Shown piece after piece: positions 21,901 to 27,900 of a stretch of DNA of 34,239 nt (within the stretch, counting starts at the first letter, position 1; every line of letters begins with the position of its first letter). The stretch spans positions 1 through 34,239 of the IMG/VR virus record IMGVR_UViG_2663762996_000010. One strand, 5' to 3'. Made by a program: the position numbers. Source of the DNA: a virus (taxonomy: Duplodnaviria; Heunggongvirae; Uroviricota; Caudoviricetes).

Positions 21901-24900
21901 ATGATTTTCTGGTGCGTACCGGGTTGAGAAGCGGTGTAAGTGAACTGCAGTTGCCATGTTTTACGGCAGTGAGAGCAGAGATAGCGCTGATGTCCGGCAG
22001 TGCTTTTGCCGTTACGCACCACCCCGTCAGTAGCTGAACAGGAGGGACAGCTGATAGAAACAGAAGCCACTGGAGCACCTCAAAAACACCATCATACACT
22101 AAATCAGTAAGTTGGNNNNNNNNNNNNNNNNNNNNNGTAAGTATGGCGGAGTTATTCCTTCCCCGTTGAGGACACCGGGTTGTCAGGTTGACCATACGCT
22201 TAAGTGACAACTCCGCTGCAACGCCCTCTGTTATCAATTTTCTGGTGACGTTTGGCGGTATCAGTTTTACTCCGTGACTGCTCTGCCGCCCTTTTTAAAG
22301 TGAATTTTGTGATGTGGTGAATGCGGCTGAGCGCACGCGGAACAGTTAAAACCAAAAACAGTGTTATGGGTGGATTCTCTGTATCCGGCGTTAATTGTTA
22401 ACTGGTTAACGTCACCTGGAGGCACCAGGCACCGCATCACAAAATTCATTGTTGAGGACGCGATAATGGAAACGTTATTACCAAACGTTAATACGTCTGA
22501 AGGTTGTTTTGATATTGGTGTTCTGCTCAGTAACCGGGAGTTTACGGAAGATGCCATTAAGATGAGAAAATATGAACCTTATCTTCTCAATGATAATTCC
22601 ATACTTTCCAGAATTGCCCTTCTTGAACTTGGTATTATCGGAGAACAGCAGTGACTTCAGCATTTGCACTGGTGATGACCGTTTTTCTTATAACGGGTGA
22701 GCCACAAAATGTGATTACCGGAATTTATGACAGTAAGTCATCCTGCATTCAGGTAAGGGACGAACAAAAAATCCCCGGTGAATGCCTCCCGTTAAAAAAA
22801 GTATCGCTGAACCTGAATAACGAAATACCGGCTGGATAACCCGCCAGCCATATTAACGCCATACCAACGGATTAAAAATGCCAGCAATGGCAGGGATTCG
22901 TTCACCCTGAAATCTGTAATGAGGTTAAAACAAAATGAGTAAAGTCTTTATTTGCGCCGCCATTCCGGACGAACAGGCAATAAAGGAAGAAGGTGCAGTC
23001 GCTGTAGCCACTACCATTGAAGCCGGTGATGAATGTCGCGCCCGCGCAAAATTTCACTGGCAATTCCTGGAACATTATCCGGCTGCTCAGGACTGCGCTT
23101 ATAAATTTATTGTCTGCGAGGATAAACCTGGCATACCCCGCCCTGCCCTCGATTCATGGGATGCTGAATATATGCAGGAAAACCGCTGGGATGAGGAGTC
23201 TGCTTCTTTTGTCCCGGTTGAGACTGAATCCGATCCGATGAACGTCACTTTTGACAAGCTGGCCCCTGAAGTACAGAACGCTGTCATGGTTAAGTTCGAC
23301 ACATGTGAAAACATCACCGTTGATATGGTTATTAGCGCACAGGAATTGTTGCAGGAAGACATGGCAACATTCGACGGACATATCGTTGAAGCGTTGATGA
23401 AAATGCCAGAAGTTAACGCCATGTATCCGGAGCTTAAGTTGCACGCCATTGGGTGGGTTAAGCATAAATGTATTCCTGGTGCTAAATGGCCCGAAATTCA
23501 GGCAGAGATGCGCATCTGGAAAAAACGTCGCGAAGGTGAACGCAAGGAAACCGGAAAATACACGTCTGTTGTTGATCTCGCCCGCGCCAGAGCCAATCAA
23601 CAGTACACTGAAAATTCAACAGGAAAAATCAGCCCGGTCATTGCTGCCATTCATCGCGAATACAAGCAGACATGGAAAACACTGGATGACGAACTGGCCT
23701 ACGCTCTCTGGCCTGGTGATGTGGATGCCGGAAACATTGACGGCAGCATCCATCGCTGGGCAAAAAATGAAGTTATCGACAACGGCCGCGAAGACTGGAA
23801 GCGTATCTCGGCATCAATGCGCAAACAGCCTGATGCCCTTCGCTACGACCGCCAGACTATTTTTGGCCTTGTCCGTGAACGTCCGATCGACATTCACAAA
23901 GATCCTGTGGCACTGAACAAATACATTACTGAATACCTGACTACAAAGGGCGTGTTTGAAGATGAAGGAAGAAATCAGAGCGCAACTGATACTCTCTCGT
24001 CGCCAGTACCAGAAACTGATGCAGTGGAAACGGCAATTCCGGACAACGAAAAAACCGAATGCAAAGTGGAAGTCGAACCATCTGTAGAGCGTGAAGGGCC
24101 GTTCTACTTCCTCTTCACCGACAAGGATGGCGAAAAATACGGTCGCGCAAACAAACTTTCTGGTCTGGATAAGGCGCTGGCTGCCGGGGCTACTGAAATC
24201 ACGAAAGAAGAATATTTCGCCCGCAAAAACAGTACATACTCAGGTTCACAACAAAATACTGGTGCATCTGACACGATCGCACAACCAGAGCCGGTAAAAG
24301 TTACCGCTGACGAAGTAAACAAAATTATGCAGGCAGCCAATATCAGCCAGCCTGACGCCAATAAGTTGCTTGCTGTATCACGTGGTGAATTTGTTGCAGG
24401 GATTAGCGACCCGAATGATCCGAAATGGGTGAAGGGGATTGAAACCCGCGATTCAGTGAATCAGAACCAACAAGAAACGGAACAGAACGGCCAGAAAGCG
24501 GAACAAAACAGCCCAAATGCGTTACAAAACGAGCCAGAAACGAAACAACCTGAGCCAGTAGCGCAACAGGAACCGGAAAAAGTCTGCACCGCCTGCGGTC
24601 AAAGCGGTGGTGGCAACTGCCCTGATTGTGGCGCGGTAATGGGCGACGCAACATACCAGGAAACATTCGATAAAGAGTATCAGCCTGAAGTTCAGGAAGA
24701 TGATCCGGAGGAAATGGAAGGCGCTGAACATCCACACAAGGAGAACACTGGCGGCAATCAGCATCACGATAGCGATAATGAAACTGGCGAGACGGCAGAT
24801 CACTCAATTAAGGTGAACGGTCATCAAGAAATCACATCCACCAGCAGGACGTGTGACCATCTAATGATCGACCTTGAAACCATGGGAAAAAATCCTGATG

Positions 24901-27900
24901 CCCCGATCATCTCAATAGGTGCAATATTTTTCGATCCGCAAACCGGAGATATGGGACCGGAATTTAGTAAGACTATCGATCTGGAAACTGCTGGCGGAGT
25001 CATTGATCGGGACACCATTAAATGGTGGCTTAAGCAATCACGCGAAGCGCAATCTGCCATTATGACCGATGAAATCCCGTTAGATGATGCACTGTTACAA
25101 TTGCGGGAATTTATCGACGAAAACTCCGGTGAATTTTTTGTTCAGGTCTGGGGAAATGGAGCCAACTTCGACAACACGATTTTGCGCCGTTCATACGAAC
25201 GGCAGGGGATCCCCTGCCCGTGGCGTTACTACAACGATCGCGATGTACGCACAATCGTTGAGCTGGGGAAAGCCATAGACTTCGATGCCAGAACGGCTAT
25301 TCCATTCGAAGGTGAGCGCCATAATGCACTTGATGACGCCCGTTACCAGGCAAAATACGTTTCAGTTATCTGGCAAAAACTGATCCCGAGTCAGGCTGAT
25401 TTTTAATGTTCAACCCTAATTGCCGCTAACCGTATATAGTTAGCGGCGGTTATGAGATATAGCTATGAGCAGCTTATTTTTAACCGAAGATGAATTGCTA
25501 ATATTAACGGGCTGCAAATATGCAAGCCACCAGCGAAAATGGTTAATGGAAAACGGGCTTCCGTTCTATACCAATCGTAGTGGCAAACCGATTGTCAGCC
25601 GGGATCTATTTACCTGCAATAAAACTTTACCACCACGCGAGGTAGAGCCGAATTTTGGTGCGATCTGATGGGAAGACGAAGGAAAAATCCTGAACACGAA
25701 AAATTACCTCCAAATGTATACCCAAATAAATATAGTTATGTATGGAAACCAACATCCAGAGAATCTGTCACACTAACCGCCATCAAGGATGGTTTAGCTG
25801 CTTTATGGAAAAAGTATGAGGAAACTGTAGATAATCGCGATCGTGCAATAACATTCGGTCGCTTGTGGGAAAAATTCCTCGCCAGCGCCTATTACAGTGA
25901 CCTTAGTCCAAGAACACAAAAAGATTATCTGCAACATCAAAAAAAGTTGCTTGCCGTATTCAGTAAGGTACCAGCGGATTCCATAAAACCAGAACACATC
26001 CGTCGATACATGGACAAAAGAGGGGAGCAAAGTAAAACGCAAGCCAACCATGAAAAAAGCAGTATGTCCCGTGTTTACAGTTGGGGGTATGAGCGAGGGT
26101 ACGTGAAGGCTAACCCATGTGCAGGTGTAAGTAAATTCAAGGCCAAAAACCGCGAACGATATGTAACCGACAAAGAATACCAGGCAGTATTAAGCGTTGC
26201 ACCTCTTCCTGTTTTTATCGCAATGGAAATTGCCTATCTGTGTGCAGCGAGGGTTTCCGATGTGTTATCGCTGAAATGGGAGCAGATTGGAAACGACGGG
26301 ATCTTTATCCAGCAAGGGAAAACAGGGAAAAAACAGATAAAAGCATGGAGTCCACGATTACAGGCGGCGATCGAAAAAGCAAAACAGTTACCAACATCCG
26401 CCTATGTAATCAGCAATCAATACGGCAACCGATATATGTACAAAGGCTTTAACGAAATGTGGGTAGAAGCAAGAAATCGCGCAGGCAAAATTTCAGGTAT
26501 TTTAACCGACTTCACCTTTCATGATCTGAAGGCGAAAGGAATTTCAGACTATGAAGGAAGCAGCCGGGATAAGCAACTTTTCTCTGGTCACAAAACCGAA
26601 GGGCAAGTGCTAATCTATGACAGGAAGGTTAAAGTTTCACCAACACTTGATGTCCCGTTACCTGAAAATATTCCAAGAAAATATTCCAAGTAATTCCAAG
26701 TGTGATTTTTGTCACTGACTTAATGATGTGTAAGTGATTGAATTTTGGCGGAGAGAGGGGGATTTGAACCCCCGGTAGAGTTGCCCCTACTCCGGTTTTC
26801 GAGACCGGTCCGTTCAGCCGCTCCGGCATCTCTCCGTTCAGATGGTTGCCATGATGCCAGGAAATTTGGCATTTTAACAGTCCCTGTTCGTGCAATTTTG
26901 TTCAAGTGACGAGTTTGCGAGCAAAACGATGATTAAGTGGCCCTGGAAAGTACAAGAATCAGCACATCAAACTGCCCTTCCCTGGCAGGAAGCACTATCG
27001 ATCCCCCTTTTAACGGGTCTGACGGAACAGGAACAAAGCAAATTAGTCACTCTTGCCGAACGTTTTTTACAGCAAAAGCGGCTTGTTCCTTTACAGGGCT
27101 TTGAACTGGATTCATTAAGAAGCTGCCGGATAGCACTTCTATTTTGCCTACCCGTTCTGGAGTTAGGACTGGAATGGCTGGATGGTTTTCATGAAGTCTT
27201 AATTTATCCTGCGCCATTTGTGGTCGATGATGAATGGGAAGACGATATCGGTCTGGTGCATAACCAACGTATTGTTCAGTCAGGTCAGAGCTGGCAGCAA
27301 GGGCCTATCGTTTTGAACTGGTTGGATATACAAGATTCTTTTGATGCATCTGGTTTTAACCTGATTATTCATGAAGTCGCTCATAAGCTGGACACCCGTA
27401 ACGGCGATCGCGCCAGCGGAGTTCCCTTTATTCCGTTGCGTGAGGTTGCTGGCTGGGAACACGATCTTCATGCTGCAATGAACAACATTCAGGAAGAAAT
27501 CGAATTGGTTGGCGAGAATGCGGCGAGCATTGATGCTTATGCAGCCAGCGATCCTGCTGAATGTTTTGCCGTACTTTCTGAATATTTCTTTAGCGCCCCA
27601 GAACTTTTTGCTCCTCGTTTCCCTTCATTGTGGCAACGTTTCTGCCAATTTTATCAACAAGATCCTTTGCAGAGACTGCATCACGCTAATGATACAGACT
27701 CGTTTTCGGCGACGAATGTTCATTAATTAACAACTTTGCAGATTAATTAACCAATTGAAATGACTTATGAAATTTAGTGTTGACAGACAAGGTACCGCTA
27801 AGTAATATGTGCCCCGTTCACACGATTCCTCTGTAGTTCAGTCGGTAGAACGGCGGACTGTTAATCCGTATGTCACTGGTTCGAGTCCAGTCAGAGGAGC

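Follow-up and report, generated by a model that had tools for sequence, protein, structure and literature searches.

A RecE-like prophage scaffold that appears to carry a T4-DexA-type exonuclease head and stands without a RecT partner

What does a RecE-like protein do when it carries a different nuclease and has no RecT beside it? The question is raised by a gene in the virus record IMGVR_UViG_2663762996_000010 of IMG/VR (Duplodnaviria; Heunggongvirae; Uroviricota; Caudoviricetes), of which we analysed the whole stretch from position 1 to 34,239, referred to here as the window. At positions 22935..25406 of the plus strand, an open reading frame (ORF) with an ATG start encodes 823 residues, exactly as an original prediction made from the sequence had described it; the gene is the undamaged form of what K-12 keeps as the pseudogene ydfE. 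The prediction had seen in it a fusion of a RecE-like region, a zinc ribbon and a DEDDh exonuclease, with a nuclease end of another fold than that of canonical RecE, and this architecture stands. Judged by its sequence, the protein is a RecE-like scaffold joined to a T4-DexA-type DEDDh 3'-5' exonuclease head. Its modules occupy the following positions.

22935..23549, plus strand: YdfE_N module (residues 1-205), with an alpha/beta subdomain first and a helical one after it
23667..23954, plus strand: YdfE_C helical domain (residues 245-340), PF27432, with a predicted local distance difference test score (pLDDT) of 85-95 in AlphaFold2 and similarity to RecE by BLASTP
24087..24230, plus strand: GPFY / GRANK mini-domain (residues 385-432), a beta-hairpin plus helix, AlphaFold2 pLDDT 84-89
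24354..24644, plus strand: segment shared with RecE (residues 474-570), with a DPNDPKW motif and the zinc ribbon, from identity to RecE and motif scan
24585-24629, plus strand: predicted CxxC-x7-CxxC zinc ribbon (residues 551-565), motif CTACGQSGGGNCPDC
24645..24854, plus strand: acidic linker (residues 571-640), 19 D+E against 4 K+R, ending at the probable mosaic joint with the nuclease head
24855..25403, plus strand: predicted DEDDh 3'-5' exonuclease head (residues 641-823), Rv2179c-like / T4 DexA family, PF16473

The assignment of the head is the firmest part of this picture. The Pfam family PF16473 matches residues 642-813 with E = 2.4e-67 and 226.5 bits against a gathering threshold of 27, covering model positions 2-177 of 177; a further Pfam match, to RNase_T, stays below its threshold. 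The DnaQ-type motifs that had been noticed at the C-terminus form a complete DEDDh set, with the D-x-E of Exo I, the D of Exo II and the H-x4-D of Exo III. When the head is aligned with 43 standalone homologues, D646, E648, D746 and H796 show no variation, D801 is kept in 43 of the 44 sequences, and all five align with the catalytic D7, E9, D119, H186 and D191 of T4 DexA. The protein is therefore likely to be an active 3'-5' exonuclease, as far as residues of the catalytic set can tell.

A profile built from the head family and searched against the PDB points in the same direction. It finds T4 DexA (8KEL, 8KEN) at E = 2.9e-23 across the whole domain, the next matches, DnaQ and oligoribonucleases, follow at E > 1e-5, and no Rv2179c structure appears at E <= 0.1. 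T4 DexA is thus the nearest solved relative; it has the same catalytic D, E, D, H, D and is likewise phage-encoded, but it is a standalone protein of 227 residues with extra loops and without the RecE-like scaffold, and it belongs to a lytic phage with modified DNA. DexA residues W152 and D169, reported as necessary for acting on DNA with 5-hydroxymethylcytosine (5hmC), align with Y766 and A780 of the head. Rv2179c shares the Pfam family and the DEDDh chemistry, but is a standalone bacterial protein and more distant from the head than DexA. Because the closest characterised relative is a DNA exonuclease, DNA appears the more likely substrate by analogy, ahead of RNA. Other temperate coliphages encode heads of this family as separate proteins with 54-59% identity, namely phage YDC107_1 (Ravinvirus; positions 5962-6561 of locus L003) and phage SKA5 (positions 5998-6571 of locus L004), in neither case with an annealase nearby; the SKA5 gene is split into two ORFs.

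The scaffold that precedes this head is modular. An AlphaFold2 model of residues 1-460 only, computed from 19 homologues with a mean pLDDT of 78, contains four folded units: an alpha/beta unit (residues 1-100) and a helical unit (105-205), which together make up YdfE_N, a second helical unit (245-340), and a beta-hairpin plus helix (385-432). Disordered linkers separate them. The linkers are acidic and rich in Q and N, much as the earlier description of long acidic, Q-rich linkers had it, and disorder is predicted up to residue 460, where the model stops. The names YdfE_N (PF27430) and YdfE_C (PF27432) were carried over from the precomputed annotation of P0001, a protein 97% identical to ours, since both families are newer than the Pfam release we used; for the 823-residue sequence, the two assignments thus go by the annotation of near-identical proteins. 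YdfE_C shows weak similarity by BLASTP to RecE residues 278-352. The highest conservation across scaffold relatives falls on the mini-domain with the motif ERxGPFY...GRANK, in which E385, R386, G388, P389, F390, Y391, R404, A405, N406 and K407 are invariant (alignment A2).

The presence of a zinc ribbon was correctly foreseen, its spacing was not: the two CxxC knuckles are seven residues apart and not nine. The same motif was found by motif scan in the RecE proteins of loci L006 and L007, in the protein of locus L005 and in P0004, P0032 and P0079, and we read it as a predicted zinc ribbon that is conserved among relatives, although Pfam DZR matches residues 548-569 only very weakly (E = 0.1).

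How much of RecE, then, is left in this protein? Rac RecE, too, is large, built of several domains and long at its N-terminal side, and its gene takes the same slot of the early-left operon, shortly before xis and int. The resemblance is closest over residues 474-625, which BLASTP finds 72-80% identical to Rac-type RecE, including DPNDPKW, the CxxC-x7-CxxC ribbon and the acidic tail; at the DNA level, its identity to recE of Rac-SA53 is 83%. RecE homology stops at about residue 625. Since this is where the nuclease domain of RecE begins, the position looks like a mosaic joint. Beyond it the two proteins diverge in kind: the head of RecE is a PDDEXK nuclease of 5'-3' polarity, against the predicted DEDDh 3'-5' head here. 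They also differ at the other end, where RecE has Exonuc_VIII (PF06630) and our protein YdfE_N, and a motif scan finds the GPFY mini-domain absent from canonical RecE.

In agreement with this, the protein fails the NCBIfam equivalog test for exodeoxyribonuclease VIII (NF007259), reaching 274.6 bits against a cut-off of 1269, with only residues 246-625 aligned to model positions 271-602 of 877. No PDDEXK head was found: Pfam gave no PF12684 (DUF3799) match in the protein, and tblastn with three RecE heads came back empty across the window. Nor does the protein match PF06630 at E <= 1. Together with the absence of an adjacent RecT, these results rule out a RecE or exodeoxyribonuclease VIII orthologue.

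The missing partner was followed up with tblastn queries for RecT (three sequences), lambda Bet, P22 Erf, Rad52-like proteins, lambda Exo, lambda Gam, Mu-Gam-like proteins and P22 Abc2. The whole window holds no homologue of RecT, Bet, Erf, Rad52-like proteins, Gam or lambda Exo, as the original prediction had suspected for RecT. None of the queries matched in 77 viral loci with a DEDDh head (median 6 kb of upstream sequence) or in seven reference loci (L001, L002, L005, L009, L095, L096, L099), and Pfam gene calls gave no annealase, Gam or lambda Exo in four further DEDDh loci (L109-L112). The complete 46-kb genome of phage Tritos is equally free of annealase, Gam and lambda-type Exo, both by annotation and by tblastn. 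In more distant relatives from other Enterobacterales prophages, which combine Exonuc_VIII with a DEDDh head, an excisionase and/or an integrase follows directly. Because intact phages and distant relatives also do without RecT, its absence is inherent to the family and not made by IS1; a RecT displaced by IS1 is ruled out by the IS1-free relatives. The original prediction had named two observations that would speak against it, loss of the catalytic residues or a standard exodeoxyribonuclease VIII whose RecT had been moved by IS1; what we found is a conserved catalytic set, a failed equivalog test and IS1-free relatives that also stand alone.

A wider view of the scaffold puts these differences into context. 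A search of 50%-cluster representatives, with 11,753 matches at E <= 1e-3, and scans with Pfam reveal a family built by combination; the diverse loci came from the genome collection, the viral collection giving close relatives only (query alignment of 6 sequences). The N-terminal domain is either YdfE_N or Exonuc_VIII, and the heads are of several kinds. DEDDh heads occur in the 823-residue protein and in P0003, P0004, P0007, P0014, P0015, P0017, P0025, P0031, P0038 and P0041, PDDEXK/DUF3799 heads in RecE and P0021, and a third type, PHROG 2489, in P0018, P0035, P0037, P0062 and P0108. This last type is represented by gp07 of Pectobacterium phage ZF40, which has the YdfE_N, YdfE_C and GPFY scaffold in common with our protein at 37-44% identity and lies in the same operon slot before xis and int, but whose head is a Rad52-like annealase; the PHROG 2489 proteins, labelled 'exonuclease', thus appear to be annealase fusions. 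We also noted a possible fourth head type on the same scaffold, at residues ~437-697 of P0011 (702 residues), which belongs to PHROG 26058 and has no Pfam match.

The type of head predicts which gene lies next to it. RecT lies immediately downstream of the PDDEXK head in all four loci examined (L006, L007, L008, L100), whereas in the scanned loci of the 823-residue family it never does; a Mu-Gam-like gene lies immediately downstream of the Rad52-like head in 7/7 loci (ZF40, L101-L106); and the DEDDh head is followed by xis and int only. The exchange can be seen at close range in L100 (positions 6001-10010; metagenome-assembled genome Proteobacteria CTSoil_132), where a scaffold 88-94% identical to that of our protein carries a PDDEXK head 85% identical to the RecE head of Rac-SA53, with RecT next and a joint near residue 480-500. 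So similar a scaffold with another head and with RecT suggests a recent exchange of head plus partner.

From these combinations one may ask whether the RecE/YdfE scaffold is a general delivery module that brings exchangeable effector heads to one target, either DNA ends or a host factor that binds ends or belongs to the replisome, and whether the DEDDh version is a self-sufficient, annealase-free alternative to RecET. We regard this as possible in outline, yet rather doubtful in this general form.

The surroundings of the gene bear on when it would be expressed. Its neighbours in the window are these.

22240..22291, plus strand: DicF small RNA, the copy directly upstream (Rfam RF00039, 76.7 bits), in the same order as in Tritos and K-12 Qin
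22466..22654, plus strand: dicB, cell-division inhibitor, 62 residues (Pfam DicB, E = 3.7e-38)
22651..22839, plus strand: ydfD-like gene, DUF1482, 62 residues (Pfam DUF1482, E = 2.8e-15), in the position of ydfD in K-12 Qin
25465..25668, plus strand: excisionase-like gene, DUF4224, 67 residues (Pfam DUF4224, E = 1.9e-15)
25668..26693, plus strand: tyrosine integrase, 341 residues (Pfam Phage_integrase, E = 2.5e-11)
26746..26835, minus strand: tRNA-Ser(CGA) (ARAGORN, Rfam)

The xis and int genes are thus just downstream, as had been stated, and the tRNA-Ser(CGA) is likely to be the attachment site that marks the end of the prophage. In the plaque-forming phages mEp460 and Tritos, with which the window prophage is collinear, the order is repressor, small ORFs, DicF, dicB, ydfD, the 823-residue gene, xis and int; the section from dicB through ydfD, the exonuclease gene and xis to int also recurs in the active phage vB_EcoS-640R1 and in K-12 Qin. 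The gene is not, however, the first one preserved after the IS1 region, as had been claimed, since the stretch that separates it from the last IS1 still contains DicF, dicB and ydfD.

In the window prophage, three IS1 copies (17472-18238, 19436-20250 and 21301-22115) and two P1-like units are inserted between the repressor region and the block formed by DicF, dicB, ydfD and the exonuclease gene. Each unit consists of isrK, a C4 antisense RNA and an antirepressor-like ORF of 217 residues (18777-19514 and 20642-21379), and within 16590-22460 DicF is present three times, at 16694, 20356 and 22240. Runs of 20-21 N stand exactly at two IS1 ends (20251-20270 and 22116-22136), so the tandem structure may be in part an artefact of assembly or masking and not a true IS1-mediated amplification. 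No promoter-like site was found on the plus strand directly upstream of the gene. As the three IS1 copies separate the operon from the promoter region near the repressor, expression in this prophage is doubtful, and the normal transcription of the gene is probably interrupted in this copy, though its ORF is intact.

Some further features of the window can be added here. Within the prophage, four tRNA genes (Gly-TCC, Thr-TGT, Lys-TTT, Met-CAT) are clustered at 6836-7145 on the minus strand, and a sok antitoxin RNA of the hok/sok type at 10726-10900, also on the minus strand, occupies the place that HokD has in Tritos and K-12 Qin. Beyond the tRNA-Ser(CGA) follow ORFs that we take, from their translations, to be mtfA and yeeJ. 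The presumed yeeJ adhesin gene (28141-34171, plus strand) is divided into three ORFs (28141-29217, 29218-30369 and 30299-34171), a split that suggests an in-frame stop and a frameshift, and therefore probably a pseudogene.

What function would fit a protein of this build in this place? We tentatively favour, with somewhat less than even confidence, an active Mg-dependent DEDDh 3'-5' exonuclease on a RecE/YdfE scaffold that serves the processing of DNA ends as part of the early operon. The gene is seen as the last cargo gene of a lambdoid early-left operon running from the repressor over small ORFs, DicF, dicB, ydfD and the exonuclease to xis and int, and because of this position the protein would be made after induction or infection and not in the repressed lysogen. 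The disordered acidic linkers would tether the head to YdfE_N, YdfE_C, the GPFY mini-domain and the zinc ribbon, this scaffold would deliver the head to the ends of linear DNA, or to some host factor located there, and the head would trim 3' strands. One protein would then provide an end-processing function in the slot that is filled by RecE plus RecT in Rac and by a Rad52-like annealase plus Gam in phages of the ZF40 type. Candidate roles are the trimming of 3' tails, making ends unsuitable for RecBCD, and the breakdown of linear DNA of competitors or of the host. That the scaffold does the targeting, when the protein is expressed and what biological benefit it brings are what we infer; the purpose in particular is drawn from synteny and from the shared scaffolds. 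Among the roles named in the original prediction, recombination or end processing is favoured through analogy with the other heads and partners on the same scaffold, degradation of a nucleotide signal has the least support, and nothing specific points to anti-restriction.

Several points weigh against end processing. A recombination role is not straightforward, since a lone 3'-5' exonuclease cannot anneal strands and removes the 3' tails that RecA or an annealase needs. The namesake of the Pfam family, Rv2179c of Mycobacterium tuberculosis, is an RNA exonuclease, and an RNA substrate is therefore possible for the head. A standalone E. coli protein described as a DexA homologue, EcD, has been reported as a defence nuclease (PMC12153337). 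In addition, our literature search found no biochemical or genetic data for the 823-residue protein or for any full-length relative.

The report on EcD leads to the alternative that survives best, although we consider it unlikely: that the protein is a prophage nuclease for defence or superinfection exclusion, whose head degrades incoming phage nucleic acid while the N-terminal part serves as a sensor or targeting domain. Its substrate could be modified DNA, as claimed for EcD ('HREX'), or the 3' ends of RNA phages, as for the ISG20-like 'TONDO' enzymes. In the 2025 study this standalone E. coli protein gave protection against T4 and, in vitro, digested 5hmC DNA; the defence claim comes from plasmid expression in a single paper, whose authors report EcD as a DexA homologue with conserved exonuclease residues (PMC12153337). 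We compared it by description and by its cloning primers, according to which EcD is a short standalone protein that starts with MIDTET and ends with TIPETY, and the primers rule out that EcD is the C-terminal domain of our protein. A 2026 preprint describes ISG20-like DEDDh exonucleases of prophages that carry auxiliary domains and act against RNA phages (PMC13344964); no link was established between these enzymes and the family studied here. Also in favour are the high prevalence of the gene, in 65% of complete E. coli genomes, and its ORF, which is intact even in this IS1-scrambled prophage and would in this respect fit a benefit to the host.

Other observations are harder to reconcile with defence. 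The gene belongs to the early-left operon, which is under the control of the repressor, and no separate promoter-like site was found for it, for which reason it should be silent in the lysogen. The HREX signature, which asks for the equivalents of DexA W152 and D169 to be kept and of D90 to be lost, is absent: Y766 stands in place of W152 and A780 in place of D169, whereas D718 preserves the tetramer-forming D90, with single positions somewhat uncertain in the family-profile alignment used. PADLOC-DB 2.0 yields only a generic Cas-associated DEDDh model (E = 1.7e-5, 23.5 bits), the scaffold is common to RecE plus RecT and to annealase plus Gam proteins, and in K-12 the gene has decayed to a pseudogene.

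The reverse function, a phage anti-defence enzyme, strikes us as quite unlikely. It would remove an immune signal with a free 3' end, for instance the multicopy single-stranded DNA of retrons, cyclic or linear oligonucleotide messengers, or guide and primer RNAs. Counter-defence genes typically lie in the early-left operon, as do ral and gam of lambda and abc of P22; at greater distance, the head profile also reaches oligoribonucleases in the PDB, which act on very short substrates; and such an enzyme would need no annealase partner. On the other hand, no homology to a characterised anti-defence nuclease was found in searches that were not aimed at anti-defence phosphodiesterase families, the nearest characterised relative, DexA, works on DNA, and a scaffold of 640 residues common to DNA recombination proteins is hard to square with a small-molecule substrate.

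That the enzyme degrades RNA from the 3' end, with transcripts of the phage or the host as substrates, and possibly processes the long early-left transcript from which DicF is derived, is in our view improbable. The naming of the Pfam family after the Rv2179c exoribonuclease, the corresponding RefSeq name and the shared operon with the processed small RNA DicF speak for it. Yet the head profile retrieves DexA and, at E <= 0.1, no structure of Rv2179c, the RefSeq name most likely goes back to the Pfam family name, and the relatives of the scaffold are DNA recombination proteins.

The distribution and the selection pressure on the gene are informative with respect to the last alternative. Of 5426 complete E. 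coli genomes, 3533 contain the gene over at least 80% of its length, and 23,183 sequences belong to the closest cluster at 90% identity. The ORF is intact in 76 of the 77 loci with a complete ORF, and exactly 823 codons long in 73. Pairwise ratios of nonsynonymous to synonymous substitution rates (dN/dS) among 69 unique alleles are 0.08 for YdfE_N, 0.21 for YdfE_C, 0.07 for the GPFY mini-domain, 0.18 for the zinc-ribbon segment and 0.17 for the DEDDh head. With values of 0.07-0.21, all folded modules are under purifying selection, while the linkers, at 0.4-3 (0.69 for the acidic linker of residues 571-640), evolve near-neutrally. Degenerate copies exist as well. K-12 Qin carries the same gene as ydfE (b1577), annotated as a pseudogene in the order dicF-dicB-ydfD-ydfE-int; it is cut by IS2E and has lost all that lies beyond, zinc ribbon and nuclease head included, and this remnant is the source of the Pfam names YdfE_N and YdfE_C. 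In two E. coli chromosomes (L097, L098), copies 98% identical over residues 1-257 can be read as the truncated ydfE remnant. A decaying, non-functional mosaic of recE-like and dexA-like genes, for which the evident mosaic joints, the defective, IS1-ridden window prophage and the truncated K-12 copy could be cited, is nevertheless very improbable, being contradicted by the intact ORFs and the dN/dS values and at odds with the conserved catalytic residues, the presence of the gene in plaque-forming phages and the size of the cluster.

The family is already in the databases, and the novelty implied by the original prediction was overstated: PHROG 2082 ('exonuclease', profile length 823) matches the protein over its full span of 1-823 with 1871 bits, Pfam has YdfE_N and YdfE_C, and the gene is widespread in E. 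coli. The sequence is already catalogued and not new; its biology is a variant of the RecE theme with the opposite polarity and no partner. The public names contradict one another, among them 'exodeoxyribonuclease VIII', 'exonuclease VIII, ds DNA exonuclease', 'exonuclease', '3'-5' exoribonuclease' and 'Exodeoxyribonuclease encoded by cryptic prophage CP-933P'. By the equivalog test, the exodeoxyribonuclease VIII names in phage records are wrong. RefSeq uses 'exonuclease' or '3'-5' exoribonuclease', and the latter, most likely inherited from the Pfam family name and not from an experiment, is probably misleading. A literature search on Rv2179c and phages, ydfE and prophages, PF16473, and DEDDh enzymes and anti-defence found no functional study of this protein.

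RecET is a workhorse of recombineering, and of our results the modular scaffold, whose three heads have fixed partners or none, is the most useful. It is relevant to the N-terminal domain of RecE: these N-terminal two-thirds have no known function, and full-length RecE boosts linear-linear recombination, as summarized in a 2023 review (PMC11611040). The scaffold is not bound to the nuclease of RecE; in nature it carries three or more kinds of DNA-end effector, and each kind either has one fixed partner or stands alone. If the scaffold is indeed a delivery module, the DEDDh version would have the opposite polarity of resection and an undescribed role in phage DNA metabolism or in the handling of RecBCD. 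Since roughly two in three complete E. coli genomes contain this variant, which also occurs in Stx-phage-associated prophages, any function it has, whether in end processing, defence or counter-defence, would apply very widely.

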